Shown piece after piece: positions 60-5,666 of a stretch of 5,666 bases of DNA. The DNA comes from a virus (Duplodnaviria > Heunggongvirae > Uroviricota > Caudoviricetes), in IMG/VR virus record IMGVR_UViG_2778261420_000014. One strand, 5' to 3'. Each line of letters opens with the position of its first letter. Position 1 is the first letter of the stretch. The translations under genes and the position numbers were made by a program. The notes below the pieces were generated by a model, which saw nothing but the letters and a program-made list of their open reading frames with translations, was not told the DNA's origin and did not search any database.

Positions 60-365
60 TTACGTGGGTAGGATCAAATCAGACTTATCACGGTTACATA
101 GCCCCAGTGCTGATAGCAGACTTACATTCAAACTAAGACTATCCCCATAAGTCAGAGGATTGGGTATAACTGGCTGTGGAGTTTCAGCGAGCAGGTTCGC
201 CGGTAACGGTATCGTTGGAACCTGCACGTATACTGTCCGCGTACTTCCGCAACCGGTCAGCAGCGACATCAGGCACAGGGCGTGAAGCGCAATCATCTTC
301 CGCAACAGCCACTTTGATATCTTCCTGGGTTCTCTGTGACTCCAGTGCGATCTGCTGTTTTGCAT
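60..365 (-). CDS. Rz1: o-spanin (Rz1-type outer-membrane lipoprotein), overlapped with Rz in the +1 frame
   Basis: Open frame 60..527 (-) is out of frame with Rz. It contains a lipobox L-T-G-C preceded by a hydrophobic stretch (MIALHALCLMSLL) and followed by a Pro-rich region (VQVPTIPLP...PQPVIPNP), typical of Rz1. ATG at 365-363 has GGAGG 9 nt upstream; alternative ATG starts at 296 and 269 would give shorter signal peptides. The frame runs 124 nt past the Rz stop. Confidence 0.5.
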   Translation of the reverse strand: MQNSRSHWSHREPRKISKWLLRKMIALHALCLMSLLTGCGSTRTVYVQVPTIPLPANLLAETPQPVIPNPLTYGDSLSLNVSLLSALGLCNRDKSDLILPT

Positions 366-576
366 GCTGGTTAGCCTCCAAAACTGTATTGACGATTTGC
401 ATTGATTGCAGGACGTTATTGGTAATGGCAGTTGCTGATTCAGCATTTTGTACAGCCTCATCAGCACGTTTCTTTTCGTACTGATATTTGCTGTAGTAGT
501 AGTTGGCTGACCAGATGAAAGAACCAATGGCAGTAACGAAAAAAGCAGCGATAATCAGCTTATAACTCAACTTCAT
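184..576 (-). CDS. Rz: i-spanin (Rz-type inner-membrane spanin subunit)
   Basis: 130 aa with an N-terminal TM segment (LIIAAFFVTAIGSFIW), then a charged, helix-prone periplasmic domain with a Cys near the C-terminus. Start overlaps the 3' end of the endolysin gene; GGTGGGGTGG purine-rich SD-like sequence lies just upstream of the ATG. Position directly after the endolysin and the out-of-frame lipoprotein ORF match spanin architecture. Confidence 0.7.
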   Translation of the reverse strand: MKLSYKLIIAAFFVTAIGSFIWSANYYYSKYQYEKKRADEAVQNAESATAITNNVLQSMQIVNTVLEANQHAKQQIALESQRTQEDIKVAVAEDDCASRPVPDVAADRLRKYADSIRAGSNDTVTGEPAR

Positions 577-1036
577 TTACCACCCCACCAGCCTCTTTAA
601 ATCGGGCAATCAGGTCACCGATTTTATGTTCATACTGACCGTAACCTGCGCCCGGCAGTGAAGCCCAGATATTGCTGCAACGATCGATAGCCTGACGGAT
701 ATCACCGCGATCAATCATCGGTAAAGCGCCACGCTCTTTAATCTGCTGCAATGCCACTGCGTCCTGGCTTTTGGGGGAGAAGTCTTTCAGACCAAGCTGT
801 TTACGGTAAGCATCCCACCATCGGGAAAGAATCTGGTAGCGTCCAGCAGCCGTTGATTTAAGTTTTGGGTTTAGCGTGACAAGTTTGCGAGGGTGGTCGG
901 AGTAATCAGTGAAGAGTTCACCACCGACAATAACGTCATAACCGTGGTTACATGTCGGTTGCCGTCCATTATCCGTTCCTTCTGACCATGCCACCATATC
1001 GAGGAAAGCTTTACGCTGGGAATTTAGTACCTGCAT
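560..1036 (-). CDS. R: Endolysin, lambda R-type lytic transglycosylase
   Basis: 158 aa, the same length as lambda R, and matching it at most positions along the whole protein as I recall it (e.g. QRKAFLDM.AWSEGTDNGRQ, HGYDVIVGGELFTDYSDHPRKLVTLNPKLKST, RWWDAYRKQLGLKDFSPKSQDAVALQQIKERGALPMIDRGDIRQAIDRCSNIWASLPGAGYGQ), including the AWSEGT segment that holds the catalytic Glu. Strong SD AAGGAG about 8 nt upstream of ATG 1036. Confidence 0.95.
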   Translation of the reverse strand: MQVLNSQRKAFLDMVAWSEGTDNGRQPTCNHGYDVIVGGELFTDYSDHPRKLVTLNPKLKSTAAGRYQILSRWWDAYRKQLGLKDFSPKSQDAVALQQIKERGALPMIDRGDIRQAIDRCSNIWASLPGAGYGQYEHKIGDLIARFKEAGGVVNEVEL

Positions 1037-1039
1037 AAA

Positions 1040-1375
1040 TTACTCCTTAGAGCCACCAAACTTGTTACCGATTACTCTCATTGCAGCCCCACGAATTGCA
1101 TCGACCCCGATCAGCCCCACCCCACCACCAATGGCAACAGAAAGCGATTTAGGCCATCCGACATACTCAAGCGCGGATGCAAAGGTCAGCGTCAGAGCGC
1201 CACAGAGCAAAATTTCGAGTGTTTTTCGTTTCCAGCCGCCACCACCACCAAAATAGGCAATACGCAAACCAGCCATAACAATCGACATAATCACTGCGCC
1301 CAGCGGCGTATCTCCACGCCACCAGCTCTGGAACAACTCCAGCCAGTCCGGCCAGGTATTTGGGTTATGAGGCAT
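1040..1375 (-). CDS. Holin (three predicted TM segments, lambda S-like topology)
   Basis: Sits immediately upstream of the endolysin; its TAA stop is 3 nt before the R ATG. Three hydrophobic segments (LGAVIMSIVMAGLRIAYF; TLEILLCGALTLTFASALEYVGW; LSVAIGGGVGLIGVDAI) and a charged C-terminus. Called from ATG 1375, giving 111 aa; the ORF track's longer form begins at a GTG (1447) and would run through the terminator hairpin at 1429-1445, so it is judged an over-extension. Confidence 0.75.
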   Translation of the reverse strand: MPHNPNTWPDWLELFQSWWRGDTPLGAVIMSIVMAGLRIAYFGGGGGWKRKTLEILLCGALTLTFASALEYVGWPKSLSVAIGGGVGLIGVDAIRGAAMRVIGNKFGGSKE

Positions 1376-1417
1376 TTCGTCATCTCTCACCTCGCGATTA
1401 TTTGCGGGTGCTGTGTT

Positions 1418-1445
1418 GGAAATAAAAAGGCCACGCAACGTGGCC
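1418..1445 (-). terminator. Rho-independent terminator between methyltransferase and holin (minus strand)
   Basis: Perfect 7-bp GC-rich inverted repeat GGCCACG-caa-CGTGGCC (1429-1445). On the minus-strand transcript it is followed directly by UUUUUAUUUCC (complement of 1418-1428). It lies 8 nt after the methyltransferase stop and about 40 nt before the holin ATG. Confidence 0.65.
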
Positions 1446-1452
1446 ACCAGAA

Positions 1453-2505
1453 TTATTTCCCCACCAGTTCACTTACCTCTTTCACTGTCTGGTTAAACCG
1501 ATCTGACTCAAGCTCAACACCTAACGCCCGACGCCCCAGCTCCATTGCTGCTTTTATTGTGGAACCAGATCCCATAAAAAAATCAGCAACCAGATCACCT
1601 GGTCGACTACTGGCATTGATTATTTGCCGGAGCATATCCGCCGGTTTCTCACACGGATGTTTACCCGGGTAGAACTGAACGGGTTTATGCGTCCAGACAT
1701 CGGTATAAGGCACGGAGACTGATACGGAGAAATAGCGCCGGAGAGATTTAAACTCATCCAGCAATTCAGAATATTTGCGATTCAGTGAATCATAAGATGC
1801 CACCAGCTGGTGGTGTGGTTGTTCCAGTTGTTGTTTCTGAAACTTCTCTGCCGCTATACGGGAAAAAAGTGCCTGCAACTTCCGGTAGTCAGCCTCATTC
1901 GGCAACTGCCACTGACTGGCACCAAACCAGTGGGAAACCATGTTTTTCTTACCAGTGGCTTCGGCAATCTGTTTTGCCGTTATACCCAGTTCGGCACGTG
2001 CATCCCTGAAATACGATATCAGCGGTGCCATTATGTGCTGTTTGAGTTCCCTTTCTTTTTCCGCATAGCCGTCACTTTTGCCGCGATATGGCCCCTGGTA
2101 ATGTTCAGCAAACAGAACGCGCTCTGTGGCAGGAAAATATGCGCGCAGACTTTCTTTATTACACCCATTCCAACGTCCGGACGGCTTCGCCCAGATGATA
2201 TGGTTAAGCACGTTGAAACGTTCACGCATCATGATCTCAATATCAGATGCCAGGCGATGCCCACAGAACAGGTAAAGGCTTCCGGCAGGTTTCAACACCC
2301 GCCAGAACTGGGCCAGACAGTGGTCCAGCCACTTAAGGTAATCTTCGTCCCCTTTCCACTGATTGTCCCAACCGTTGGGTTTCACCTTGAAGTAAGGCGG
2401 ATCGGTAACAATCAGGTCAATGGAATCATCAGGCAGGGACTGAATAAAATGCAGGCAATCAGCGTTGATTAAATCAACACTGTTTATTTTTACAGTATTT
2501 TTCAT
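1453..2505 (-). CDS. Orphan DNA methyltransferase, beta-class N6-adenine/N4-cytosine amino-methyltransferase (PF01555-like)
   Basis: 350 aa. N-terminal DPPY motif (DLIVTDPPYF, motif IV) and C-terminal FxGxG SAM-binding motif (DFFMGSGST, motif I), with HPCEKP between; the IV-before-I order defines the beta group. No adjacent restriction endonuclease gene in the window. Confidence 0.9.
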   Translation of the reverse strand: MKNTVKINSVDLINADCLHFIQSLPDDSIDLIVTDPPYFKVKPNGWDNQWKGDEDYLKWLDHCLAQFWRVLKPAGSLYLFCGHRLASDIEIMMRERFNVLNHIIWAKPSGRWNGCNKESLRAYFPATERVLFAEHYQGPYRGKSDGYAEKERELKQHIMAPLISYFRDARAELGITAKQIAEATGKKNMVSHWFGASQWQLPNEADYRKLQALFSRIAAEKFQKQQLEQPHHQLVASYDSLNRKYSELLDEFKSLRRYFSVSVSVPYTDVWTHKPVQFYPGKHPCEKPADMLRQIINASSRPGDLVADFFMGSGSTIKAAMELGRRALGVELESDRFNQTVKEVSELVGK

Positions 2506-2654: not shown

Positions 2655-2873
2655 TCATTGCTGAAGGCGTCTGTAACAGCCGAACTGGTAATCTACCAGC
2701 CCCGCCATAACCAGCTGGGTCAGTATTAACTGACAGCGTTCGCGTGAAAGGTATGTGTTTTGTGCAATCTCCCCGACTGTTGCCGGTTCGATGCTTAATT
2801 CATTAAAAACAACTTTCGCCGTTTCTGTCATATCTTGCTGTTTTAGCATGTCTTTTTCCCTTCTGGTTAACAT
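2655..2873 (-). CDS. Small hypothetical protein with a possible helix-turn-helix / winged-helix segment
   Basis: 72-aa ORF; the segment TVGEIAQNTYLSRERCQLILTQLVMAGLV looks like an HTH recognition region. The likelier start is the internal ATG at 2849 (64 aa), which has AAGGGAAAAAG about 8 nt upstream; ATG 2873 lacks a clear SD. Function is inferred only. Confidence 0.5.
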   Translation of the reverse strand: MLTRREKDMLKQQDMTETAKVVFNELSIEPATVGEIAQNTYLSRERCQLILTQLVMAGLVDYQFGCYRRLQQ

Positions 2874-2971: not shown

Positions 2972-2996
2972 AAAAAAACCGCTCGACGGCGGGTTT
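2972..2996 (-). terminator. Candidate intrinsic terminator upstream of the minus-strand gene block
   Basis: Minus-strand RNA would fold as AAAC-CCGC / GCGG-UUU (4 GC pairs plus 3 A-U pairs with one bulged residue, 6-nt loop) followed by a U7 tract (complement of A-run 2972-2978). The short GC stem keeps confidence modest. Confidence 0.35.
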
Positions 2997-3041
2997 AAGC
3001 TGTGTGGCGAAGTAACCACTCTTAACAGATTATGATAGTTT

Positions 3042-3079
3042 TTGCGTACGCGTTAGTAATTTATTATGCTCTTTACAAT
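3042..3079 (+). promoter_or_regulatory. Candidate sigma70-type promoter region for the plus-strand two-gene cassette
   Basis: AT-rich region directly upstream of the cassette. Weak hexamer candidates: TTGCGT (3042-3047), a 17-nt spacer, then TATGCT (3065-3070); alternative -10-like TATTAT (3062-3067) and TACAAT (3074-3079). None is close to consensus; exact placement is uncertain. Confidence 0.2.
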
Positions 3080-3094
3080 TGTTAGCTTAACCGC

Positions 3095-4261
3095 ATGGAA
3101 TTGACCAAAAAAATGAGCAAAGCAAGCATACGCCACGTAATCGTTCATGAGCTCTTAAAAGAATCTAATAAAGACTTCGATCACTCCAAACCATACAATC
3201 TTCGTGATACAGAACTAGATAAAACAAATGATATAGTAAAAAAATTAGTAGACGGTGTTATTGATTTGTATGGTTCAAAAGGGAACTCAGCGCATTATGG
3301 TGTTTTTATTAAAAATAAAACAAAGCAAGGCCCTATACCAGAACTATTTCATAAATACTCTTTAGTTCAACAATCTGTTTCAAGTGATTTCATTGAATTA
3401 TCGAAGGAAGTTATGAAACAAATGTATAAATCTGCTCAAGAGCAGATTTGGGCTTCTGGAGGATATGTTGTTTTTACTGATTATATTTTATCTGGTTTCC
3501 GTTATCTATTGGTTACAATGATCAAAAAAACTAATGGCGTAACTATTAGTGAAAATTTAGAGCCAGAGGAAATGATTCACTTAGAACTTGGTAATATTAA
3601 CCAAGCAGCAAAAATAAATTTCAGATATTATGAAGAATACCAAAAAGCAGATGACTTAAAAAAAACAGACTTAAGTTATCTAAGCTTTATAAGCAAAACT
3701 ACGGGACAGTCAGCGGCAGCATATTTTATAGCAGCATTAGGATGTGACAAGGGGATTGCTTCAGCAGGTGCAACCCGTAAGTTACCAGATGAAATAAGGC
3801 GTTTCTTTAAGAAAGAACCTCTTTTAAAAAATCAAGCAGAGTCATTTAGAAATGATGTTATCAAATACTTAGAAAAGCAATTTGACAACGAGCACTCTGC
3901 AAGGCTTTCTGATATCGAATCGCTTGCTTCAGGCCATATGTCCGATTTAAAAGAGGAAGAAAAAACAGAACTTGTTGATAAATTAATGAAACACCTCAAT
4001 AGTGAGGAAGTCAGAATCCCATCAGAGTTCGTAATCAATAAAAACTCCTTAGATAAAATCCGCAATGTGATATATAAAACCCCATCATTGAGCTTTCACT
4101 TCGACAAGGATTTACTCGGTGTCACAACTGATGCTAAAATATATTATGATGACGAAAACCAAAGCCTAACATTTAATAATTTGCCTGTTGAAGCATTAAC
4201 TAAGATAAGAAGAGCGTTGAAAGAAACTGATAACCCGAGTAATGAAGAAGATAAAGAATGA
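3095..4261 (+). CDS. NdpA/YejK-like nucleoid-associated protein homolog (PF04245-like), divergent
   Basis: 388-aa ORF. Segments parallel remembered E. coli YejK motifs along the whole length: [10 protein letters not shown] vs [44 protein letters not shown] vs [60 protein letters not shown] vs [24 protein letters not shown]; C-terminal [12 protein letters not shown]...LTFNNLP vs LTINFDAMLLG...LTIKGTPP. The true start may be ATG 3113 (MSKASIRHV...), which aligns with the YejK N-terminus. Stop overlaps the next start (ATGA at 4258-4261). Confidence 0.8.
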   Translation: [388 protein letters not shown]

Positions 4262-5484
4262 ATGATTTTAGTATAATAGTTAATCTGTATAGATTATCAA
4301 GCTATCCTCATTTTGACGGGGCTAAGTTTTCTGCGCGTATAGCTTATAATGCAGACGTAAAATCATTGTTCAAAAGAATTTTGAACCCTACTTTTCAAGC
4401 TGGTACAGCTGACGAAATAGAGGTGGATGGTCATTTAATTTATGATTATGAAGACTTTCCTGAAAAGGGAAATTTTCTTACATACTCGTTTAAAATTTCA
4501 CAAGGAAGTGCGAATCGTTTTTATAAAAATAAAAACGAGTTTGTAAAAATAAACACGCTCAAGAAAGGCATAATGCCAGAATATTTCTATATTATAGAGG
4601 ATGATTTCTATTCATTAGAAACACCAAAACCTTCTTATATCCAAAAAATTGAGGACATTTGTGAGCTAATCAATGCTCTTTCCATGCTTGCTCATTTCCA
4701 TGATATAAAAAAAGATAGCAAAGGTACATTTTATCGTTTAGTCTTTATTTTAAACTCAGAGTCTAAATCTTCTTCTGCTGTAATTGAAACAAATATTACA
4801 GAAGAAATTTTTAATGATAAAACAGTAAATACTCAGTTAGTTAAAACATTAGTAAGTAGTGAAGCTACTACTGATGCCCATCACATTGAAAAGATTAACA
4901 CTTTCAGAAACACAGTTATTGAGTATGTTAATAAAAATGGAAATTCCTTTGTCGAGTTAATTAACAAGTGGGATTTCATATGCGAACTTTATACGAACAA
5001 CTTAGCTGCTTATATGTCGGCATTTTCTTTTCATAAAGCAAGGAAAGAAGTTGTTGATGCTGAACTCGATTACTCAGAAAAACTGTCAAAAATAATTTCA
5101 GAAATTTCTAACAAAGCTCTTGCAATACCTATTTCACTAGCTGGTTCAATTGCTATTTTCAAATTAACAACAAAAACTGATTGGATTATTGCTTTAATTG
5201 GATTGATTATCACAGCAATAATAACATCTGCAATGATTGTGTCACAAAAAAAACAACTCGCTCGTATTTCACACTCTAAAGAAATACTTTTTGGACAATT
5301 AAGATATAGAATAAAGGATGACACCAGCGATCTTAAAGAGAGCTTAGAAGAGGCTATTAAAAAATTAAATGACAATGAGGATTTTTGTCATAAGGTGCTT
5401 GACAGTTTATTATCACTAGCATGGATGCCTACATTCATAGGCATCATCGGTATTTTATTTAAATTAATGCCAAATATTACTTGA
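4258..5484 (+). CDS. Hypothetical membrane protein: ~285-aa N-terminal domain of unknown function plus three C-terminal TM helices
   Basis: 408-aa ORF overlapping the upstream gene by ATGA. Predicted TM segments: ALAIPISLAGSIAIFKL (~aa 287-303), WIIALIGLIITAIITSAMIVS (~aa 309-329) and LLSLAWMPTFIGIIGILFKLM (~aa 383-404), with a charged ~50-aa linker between TM2 and TM3. No recognisable catalytic motif in the N-terminal domain. Confidence 0.8.
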   Translation: MNDFSIIVNLYRLSSYPHFDGAKFSARIAYNADVKSLFKRILNPTFQAGTADEIEVDGHLIYDYEDFPEKGNFLTYSFKISQGSANRFYKNKNEFVKINTLKKGIMPEYFYIIEDDFYSLETPKPSYIQKIEDICELINALSMLAHFHDIKKDSKGTFYRLVFILNSESKSSSAVIETNITEEIFNDKTVNTQLVKTLVSSEATTDAHHIEKINTFRNTVIEYVNKNGNSFVELINKWDFICELYTNNLAAYMSAFSFHKARKEVVDAELDYSEKLSKIISEISNKALAIPISLAGSIAIFKLTTKTDWIIALIGLIITAIITSAMIVSQKKQLARISHSKEILFGQLRYRIKDDTSDLKESLEEAIKKLNDNEDFCHKVLDSLLSLAWMPTFIGIIGILFKLMPNIT

Positions 5485-5666
5485 GCATGTACATAACCCC
5501 ATTAATGAAACCTAACGCAGTCTGCAATTGCTTCCGGATTGTTCCATCTGAGCATCTGCGTCTCTTCGCAATAGAACGCAGTGAAATACTGGATTTGCCC
5601 CTATATTTCCAGACACCTGTTATCACTTAACCCATTACTGGCCTGCTGCCGCAGATATTCCCGTGG

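Follow-up and report, generated by a model that had tools for sequence, protein, structure and literature searches.

The stretch of DNA examined here, virus record IMGVR_UViG_2778261420_000014 (Caudoviricetes), is 5666 bases long and is referred to in its entirety as the window; it is part of a lambdoid prophage, and the analysis was purely computational. Two genes on its plus strand form a cassette, gene 1 encoding a YejK/NA37-type nucleoid-associated protein and gene 2 a protein with a large N-terminal region and three hydrophobic segments towards its C-terminus. From approximately position 3063 the guanine plus cytosine (GC) content drops from 46-52% in the flanking phage genes to 30-35% in the cassette. 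Homology to recently reported systems indicates that the two genes probably form an anti-phage system carried by the prophage, in which gene 2 encodes the membrane-anchored effector and gene 1 the sensor. The features of the cassette and of the gene that it meets on its right are as follows.

3063..3094, plus strand: left edge of the variable cassette, a short upstream region; homology to prophages with other cassettes ends at about 3062
3095..4261, plus strand: gene 1, YejK/NA37-type nucleoid-associated protein, presumed sensor (Pfam NA37, open reading frame)
4258..5484, plus strand: gene 2, candidate membrane-anchored effector, 408 residues (open reading frame, DS1_2_antiphage match, phrog_5023)
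4258..4965, plus strand: gene 2 residues 1-236, predicted cytoplasmic alpha/beta plus helical domain, no known fold
4966..5115, plus strand: gene 2 residues 237-286, long juxtamembrane helix with an aromatic-rich motif (W238, Y252, F256, F258, K260)
5116..5244, plus strand: gene 2 residues 287-329, hydrophobic helical hairpin (first putative transmembrane segment 287-303, loop TTKTD, second 309-329)
5245..5397, plus strand: gene 2 residues 330-380, charged helical linker, predicted cytoplasmic, containing the A8 tract at 5246-5253
5398..5466, plus strand: gene 2 residues 381-403, third putative transmembrane segment with a W-x-P kink, followed by a five-residue tail
5477..5666, minus strand: 3' part of the Q antiterminator gene (RefSeq annotation of the identical locus)

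A first-pass annotation of the window, made from its letters, had described gene 2 as a frame at 4258-5484 with a soluble N-terminal region without assignable motif, followed by two transmembrane helices, a charged linker and a third transmembrane helix, and this description is borne out here. The open reading frame is present as described, and its ATG overlaps the TGA of gene 1 as ATGA (4258-4261), by which gene 2 is, on the face of the sequence, translationally coupled to gene 1. For the N-terminal region nothing was found above threshold in Pfam and nothing in PADLOC 2023, and the PHROGs match of gene 2, phrog_5023 (E=7.5e-139), carries the label 'unknown function'. Neither of the two cassette proteins was matched in the PADLOC 2023 search, which suggests that the family post-dates that library. 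A sub-threshold Pfam match of gene 2 to DUF4456 was dismissed as noise, and the coiled coils of YbgF, the sole PDB match in a sequence search with the family profile (E about 0.06), were likewise dismissed. The N-terminal domain alone showed no match to any solved structure.

The three hydrophobic segments differ in strength when assessed by 19-residue Kyte-Doolittle means and by approximate insertion energies, the latter being rough values on an approximate Hessa-type scale. Segment 309-329 (peak 2.76 at 310-328, approximately -3.4 kcal/mol) is predicted unambiguously to be a transmembrane helix, and segment 381-403 (peak 1.94 at 383-401, approximately +1.0 kcal/mol) is a probable one. Segment 287-303 (peak 1.61 at 287-305, approximately +4.5 kcal/mol) is marginal on its own and would therefore have to insert as a hairpin together with 309-329. 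All three segments are retained in the alignment of 35 relatives. The linker at 330-380 contains 21 charged residues (10 acidic and 11 basic), its net charge in the family ranging from 0 to +6, and the flanks of the hydrophobic segments hold ten Lys/Arg residues on the side of the N-terminal domain versus two on the other. These charges fit a topology in which the N-terminus is inside, so that the N-terminal domain and the 330-380 linker would both be cytoplasmic.

A structure of gene 2 predicted with AlphaFold2 from the alignment of 35 relatives is confident (mean pLDDT, the predicted local distance difference test score, 86.2) and presents all three hydrophobic segments as helical, in keeping with the layout of the first-pass annotation. 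In the model, residues 1-185 form an alpha/beta domain and residues 193-236 a small helical part. The helices that follow are one of 49 residues (238-286), a short one (289-302), one of 46 residues (306-351), one at 358-388 and, after a break at P391 (proline kink), a last one at 390-403. By analogy with the effector Pag2B of the type II PANGU system described below, residues 1-236 are presumed to be the domain on which the nucleoid protein docks, the counterpart of the Pag2B 'DMK' domain.

Relatives of gene 2 were collected at two levels, the close subfamily by a word-indexed search with clusters at 90% identity and the whole family by an exhaustive profile search of 50%-identity cluster representatives. 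The former returned 59 clusters that are 31-100% identical to the window protein, nearly all of 400-416 residues, and all named members belong to Enterobacterales. The latter returned 1007 cluster representatives at E<=1e-3, of which 567 are at E<=1e-10; nearly all are about 400-430 residues long and match from end to end. The architecture of gene 2 is far above chance.

Conservation was examined in 136 remote representatives, 21-40% identical to the window protein, and in the 35-sequence alignment, which represents the close subfamily. Residues kept in at least 90% of the remote set are K286, P291 and S293 around the start of the first hydrophobic segment, Q330 directly after the second and P391 within the third (K286, P291 and Q330 at 94% or more, P391 at 96%), along with W238, Y252, F256 and F258 in the long helix that precedes the membrane and core hydrophobic residues of the N-terminal domain. 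The juxtamembrane helix 237-286 is the best conserved region, its identity being 68% within the close subfamily and 41% among the remote representatives, against 22-27% in the other regions. The strongest conservation is thus found at the membrane boundaries and in the juxtamembrane helix and not at a catalytic-looking site.

Gene 1 covers the NA37 family almost completely (Pfam PF04245, E=2.3e-50, 172.3 bits against a gathering cut-off of 24.6, profile positions 1-321 of 325), and its PDB match is YejK (9be2_A, E=4.6e-15). Against the NCBIfam YejK model it scores 134 bits, under the equivalog cut-off of 341, and against NF053868 (DS1_1_antiphage) 99 bits (E=2.6e-28), under the cut-off of 330. 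The start of gene 1 is ambiguous, with an ATG at 3095 giving 388 residues and another at 3113 giving 382; RefSeq uses both, the longer form in one genome and the shorter in others. Alignments to orthologues start around residue 3-12, and the ATG at 3113 is the likelier start. As a separate observation, runs of at least seven A are in slight excess in gene 1 (four observed versus 2.1 in synonymous shuffles, P=0.04).

The pairing of the two genes is conserved. An NA37 gene lies directly upstream of the gene 2 homologue in 15 of 15 scanned close-subfamily loci outside E. coli (in Salmonella, Shigella, Pectobacterium, Edwardsiella, Ewingella, Pantoea, Xenorhabdus, Providencia and Proteus) and also in a metagenomic outlier locus. 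A scan of contigs with peptide patterns, which fit only the enterobacterial subfamily, accounted for 11 close loci. Among four remote representatives an NA37 gene was found upstream in three, and the contig of the fourth stops 584 bp upstream, inside an unidentified open reading frame. The identities of the two genes to the window pair co-vary (Pearson 0.95, n=13), and in that comparison gene 1 is the better conserved of the two in every case, with a mean difference of 14.5 points. The cassette occurs in 30 of 5426 complete E. coli genomes, and the isolated Klebsiella phage P7641 carries it in the same arrangement.

The homology that carries the interpretation is to DS-1, one of the 42 systems validated in the DefensePredictor study, where it is system D390; it consists of DS-1A (WP_000355468.1), a zinc-finger/YejK protein, and DS-1B (WP_000150292.1), a protein of 404 residues of which 269-404 are marked as transmembrane by the authors (PMC13092281). 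DS-1 lowers the plating of Bas1 by 7.6 logs and that of Bas26, Bas3 and T3 by 1.7-2.7 logs (PMC13092281). The window protein itself is listed in Table S10 of that study as WP_016159279.1 (NZ_NORX01000078.1, 4258..5484, plus strand), a 'Predicted novel defense gene' with a log-odds of 13.05, in a different cluster from DS-1B (PMC13092281). Since the listed coordinates are those of gene 2, the window is almost certainly this E. coli contig. Gene 2 matches NCBIfam NF053869 (DS1_2_antiphage) at E=1.5e-28 and 100 bits, with residues 86-397 on profile positions 31-336 of 337. In BLASTP, gene 2 is 22% identical to DS-1B over 223 residues (E=8e-11) and gene 1 is 24% identical to DS-1A over 224 residues (E=8e-11). 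Against DS-1B the gene 2 family profile scores 59.7 bits, and the aligned part (positions 88-387) begins midway through the N-terminal domain and reaches the last helix. Taken with the scores below cut-off, these identities and the profile alignment indicate that the window pair is a distant homologue of DS-1 and not an orthologue.

A second report of 2026 describes type II PANGU, composed of Pag2A, a YejK-like protein, and Pag2B, which has an acidic 'DNA-mimicking' N-terminal domain and a C-terminal transmembrane domain (bioRxiv 10.64898/2026.04.06.716658). In the E. coli example tested, both genes are required and neither is toxic alone, and the phenotype is abortive, with growth arrest at high multiplicity and falling phage titres (bioRxiv 10.64898/2026.04.06.716658). 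Mutations in denA (endonuclease II) allow T4 to escape, infection by T4 causes GFP-tagged Pag2A to depart from the nucleoid, and the isolated N-terminal domain of Pag2B binds Pag2A with a dissociation constant of 19 nM (bioRxiv 10.64898/2026.04.06.716658).

The location of the cassette adds to the comparison. In the enterobacterial subfamily it occupies a fixed address between Q and the lysis genes and is read in the opposite direction to the phage genes. Immediately to its left lies the following element.

2974..3062, minus strand: conserved block with an intrinsic terminator (2978-2990 plus T-run) and a weak promoter-like site (TTACTA, 16 nt, TATCAT)

This block is 90-92% identical to the prophage loci L032 and L034 and forms part of a 78%-identical alignment to L033, the cassettes themselves being different, and it probably represents the late promoter/terminator unit (PR'/tR') that is the target of Q. 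Homology to prophages of this type stops at about 3062 and resumes inside Q. Between these points, with the same Q family and neighbours, alternative cassettes of two to three genes are found on the same strand (L032 3230-4957, L033 3469-4930, L034 3326-4940). The occupants of the site include a TIGR04255 protein plus two hypothetical proteins in related E. coli prophages, two hypothetical proteins in O104:H4, and the PADLOC candidate defence system PDC-M53 (A and B). The break in homology together with the differing cassettes therefore identifies the site as a swap point for accessory cassettes. The short upstream region 3063..3094 would have to hold or share the cassette promoter; no strong sigma-70 match is reported in it.

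The anatomy of the pair, its conserved pairing, its homology to DS-1 and its position at a prophage swap site are direct observations. A defence function is favoured because the two proteins match DS1_1 and DS1_2 (E about 1e-28), form a conserved operon, resemble PANGU and include a protein with a high DefensePredictor score, and also because the low-GC cassette sits at a variable prophage site, is rare in E. coli and occurs on a Klebsiella phage. On these grounds we consider it probable that gene 2 is the membrane-anchored effector and gene 1 the sensor of an anti-phage system. The first-pass annotation had proposed a membrane-inserting effector gated by its upstream DNA-binding partner, and this agrees with the DS-1 and type II PANGU reports of 2026, with the homology to the DS-1 pair and with the conserved pairing, the agreement being by homology only.

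In such a system, the gene 1 protein would sit on chromosomal DNA in the healthy lysogen, and the gene 2 product would be anchored in the inner membrane, its N-terminal 286 residues lying on the cytoplasmic side. A superinfecting phage that degrades or remodels the host chromosome would free the nucleoid protein, which would then dock on the N-terminal domain of gene 2. The resulting change would be relayed by the juxtamembrane helix to the hairpin and the C-terminal helix, which would then perturb the membrane, either depolarising it or forming pores, and the infected cell would no longer support phage growth (abortive infection). Protection, the need for both genes, relocation of the sensor and its binding to the N-terminal domain of the effector have all been demonstrated in relatives or analogues; for the present subfamily, protection itself, the phages affected, the trigger and the membrane as target are inferred. 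The specific step of membrane damage is about half as probable as the effector assignment as a whole, and is put forward tentatively.

Several points weigh against this interpretation. Segment 287-303 is only marginal as a transmembrane helix, and no match at E<=1e-3 was obtained with Foldseek for the gene 2 model, pores and channels not being significant. The acidity of residues 1-286 is mild (net charge -7, pI, the isoelectric point, 5.6; family mean -11 and 5.2; DS-1B -9), appears to be within the usual cytoplasmic range and would not be distinctive for a DNA mimic. Gene 2 misses the DS1_2_antiphage equivalog cut-off of 315, both genes scoring about a third of their cut-offs, the pair shares no more than 22-24% identity with DS-1, and gene 1 has no cysteine pair to match the N-terminal zinc ribbon (CxxC...CxxC) of DS-1A. 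The DefensePredictor study gives no mechanism for DS-1 (PMC13092281), and for Pag2B it is stated that its action "remains to be determined" (bioRxiv 10.64898/2026.04.06.716658). The link to PANGU is one of architecture and not of sequence comparison. The phage spectra also differ, T5 being weakly affected by DS-1 and resistant to PANGU, and the trigger may therefore differ between subfamilies.

Four other explanations were weighed, ranked from most to least likely as exclusion, an enzymatic N-terminal domain, a role in the service of the prophage, and phase variation. According to the first, the cassette brings about superinfection exclusion without killing, the membrane protein blocking DNA entry or an early step and the nucleoid protein being an accessory or a regulator. 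Many prophage exclusion proteins are small inner-membrane proteins, and gene 2 encodes a membrane protein that is carried by a prophage and transcribed in the opposite sense to the phage genes. However, the tested type II PANGU system is abortive and needs both genes, and a large conserved cytoplasmic domain strictly coupled to a DNA-binding protein would not be expected of an entry blocker. We regard exclusion as improbable.

The second explanation, held to be just as improbable, takes the N-terminal domain to be an enzyme whose catalysis causes toxicity, the hydrophobic segments serving as a mere anchor. The fold of this domain is confident and apparently new, and in the 35-sequence alignment H146-x-H148-D149-x-K151, H208 and E222 are invariant or nearly so. 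Among the 136 remote representatives, however, only H208 exceeds 80%, D149 is kept in 71% and H146 and H148 in less than 60%, and DS-1B has D-H-H-N in place of the HxHD motif. The loss of H146-x-H148-D149 in remote members and in DS-1B argues against a shared catalytic centre, and the motif was dropped as a family-wide catalytic site. In addition, no enzyme was matched in Pfam, NCBIfam or the PDB, and the residues that are best kept are those at the membrane boundaries.

A third explanation, rated lower again, is that the cassette serves the prophage itself, either as an addiction or toxin-antitoxin module or as a regulator of the lysis-lysogeny decision, for example through transcription antisense into Q. 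Gene 2 ends inside the 3' end of Q, the two convergent stop codons overlapping by 8 bp (5477-5484) with no terminator between them, and cassette transcripts may therefore run antisense into Q. If the block at 2974-3062 is the Q-dependent late promoter, the cassette would moreover sit between Q and its target. The linkage to one Q family is tight in many genera: outside E. coli, the 12 enterobacterial arrangements with intact genes all have a convergent Q homologue immediately after the cassette, with the exception of locus L019, and so does Klebsiella phage P7641, judged by position. Prophages that carry different cassettes also differ in the final codons of Q. Nevertheless, remote members keep the NA37 pairing outside the Q context, where their neighbour is an integrase or a ParE/transposase remnant, the cassettes found instead in L032-L034 close with a hairpin of their own before Q, and the tested relatives are not toxic alone, which speaks against a classical toxin-antitoxin pair.

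The last explanation concerns the A8 tract at 5246-5253, which is present as the first-pass annotation had stated and which had been proposed there to permit on/off switching by slippage. The tract reads CAA-AAA-AAA-CAA and encodes Q-K-K-Q inside a locally conserved SQKKQL motif that follows the second hydrophobic segment. A slip of +1 or -1 would give proteins of 340 or 347 residues that end before the last hydrophobic segment; no relative of either length occurs among the 59 clusters. One run of at least eight A is observed in gene 2 where 0.56 are expected from synonymous-codon shuffles (P=0.56), a chance-level frequency. Wherever the tract occurs in homologous loci, in E. coli, Salmonella and one Pectobacterium, its length is always eight, and it is absent from seven intact orthologues, with interrupted codons in its place in Shigella, Ewingella, Xenorhabdus, Providencia, Proteus and another Pectobacterium. 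Among E. coli genomes, two variants that differ in length by 1 bp were checked; both map upstream of gene 1, and neither coding sequence changes in length. The inactivations that were seen are of other kinds, namely an IS1 insertion in gene 2 of E. coli 268.2 (L004 1881-2578), frameshifted copies in Shigella flexneri and in a Pantoea insect symbiont (L017, L024), and a 1-bp deletion of a G outside any A-run that truncates gene 1 in one Edwardsiella strain (L009, about 5852), and they appear to be signs of cassette decay. A contingency locus switched by A-run slippage is thus largely refuted and is very improbable indeed.

Beyond the defence interpretation as set out above, we note a more ambitious combination, which we consider unlikely, in which gene 2 is a new kind of gated pore that is possibly also tied to the state of the prophage through the placement next to Q. 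As for the pore, gene 2 may form a long helical bundle resembling a ClyA-type toxin or the CorA funnel, in which the 287-329 hairpin and the kinked 381-403 helix rearrange or oligomerise only upon docking of the freed nucleoid protein on the structurally novel N-terminal domain. As for the placement, read-through into Q may keep the prophage's own lytic cycle from triggering the defence.

The remaining genes of the window, all on the minus strand, are as follows.

184-576, minus strand: Rz-like spanin gene
560-1036, minus strand: lysozyme gene
1040-1447, minus strand: lambda-type holin gene
1453-2505, minus strand: N6/N4 DNA methyltransferase gene (Pfam N6_N4_Mtase; PADLOC MTase_II PDLC03265, E=4e-152)
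2655-2873, minus strand: small winged-helix open reading frame of 72 residues (weak TrmB/MarR-type matches; phrog_331, 'unknown function')

The methyltransferase is an orphan, its restriction partner not being present in the window, and it lies between the presumed late promoter and the holin gene; the winged-helix frame is found directly downstream of the presumed late terminator. A 155-residue open reading frame at 60-527 overlaps the Rz-like gene in another frame and contains a lipobox-like LLTGC; it looks like an embedded gene for an outer-membrane spanin of the Rz1 type, and RefSeq annotates a short 'peptidase' at this place. In E. coli YF-1, where the locus is 99.9% identical, the whole prophage is visible and is integrated beside tRNA-Thr and proA; the gene 2 product of that strain is named WP_016159279.1 in RefSeq and is identical to the window protein.

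This kind of system has been known since 2026 from two independent reports, and the window protein already stands in a published list of predicted defence genes. The use of a nucleoid-associated protein as a sentinel of chromosome integrity was described only in that year, and the cassette does not represent a new principle. Judged by its sequence, the window pair is a subfamily at 22-24% identity to DS-1, lacking the zinc ribbon and having a distinctive prophage address. As a natural prophage-borne subfamily it may help to ask how effectors of the membrane type kill, with the advantages of clearer transmembrane segments than those of DS-1B, a confident model and an N-terminal domain without a match among solved structures. 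The short list of near-universal residues (K286, P291, Q330, P391 and the aromatic juxtamembrane helix) is open to mutation. Some of the cassettes at the swap site are themselves defence candidates, and the Q/late-gene site may therefore yield further systems.

Compared with known proteins and systems, gene 1 covers the full-length NA37 fold family as chromosomal YejK (NdpA) does, but it is phage-borne and of low GC content, shares its operon with the gene for a membrane protein and does not reach the YejK equivalog cut-off. Gene 2 is similar in shape only to CorA-type channels and to alpha-pore-forming toxins of the ClyA type, which likewise combine a soluble domain, very long helices and a hydrophobic hairpin; CorA carries a GMN motif in the loop between its transmembrane helices, whereas the loop of the gene 2 hairpin is TTKTD. 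DS-1 has the same order of two genes, with the YejK/NA37 gene first and a protein of about 400 residues with a C-terminal transmembrane region second; it is also found in E. coli, and both second genes score approximately 13 log-odds in DefensePredictor. The alignment of gene 1 to DS-1A begins at DS-1A residue 89, and the hydrophobic segments of DS-1B are weaker than those of gene 2 (maximum Kyte-Doolittle mean 1.56 versus 2.76). With type II PANGU the window pair shares the bicistronic layout of a YejK-like protein followed by a protein with a soluble N-terminal and a transmembrane C-terminal part. The 'DNA-mimic' acidity of Pag2B is weak in the N-terminal region of gene 2 (net charge -7), and the text of the preprint does not contain the word prophage, whereas the cassette in the window is a prophage moron. 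The logic proposed for PANGU, a nucleoid protein that senses damage to the host genome coupled to a membrane effector, offers by analogy the best available model for the window pair.

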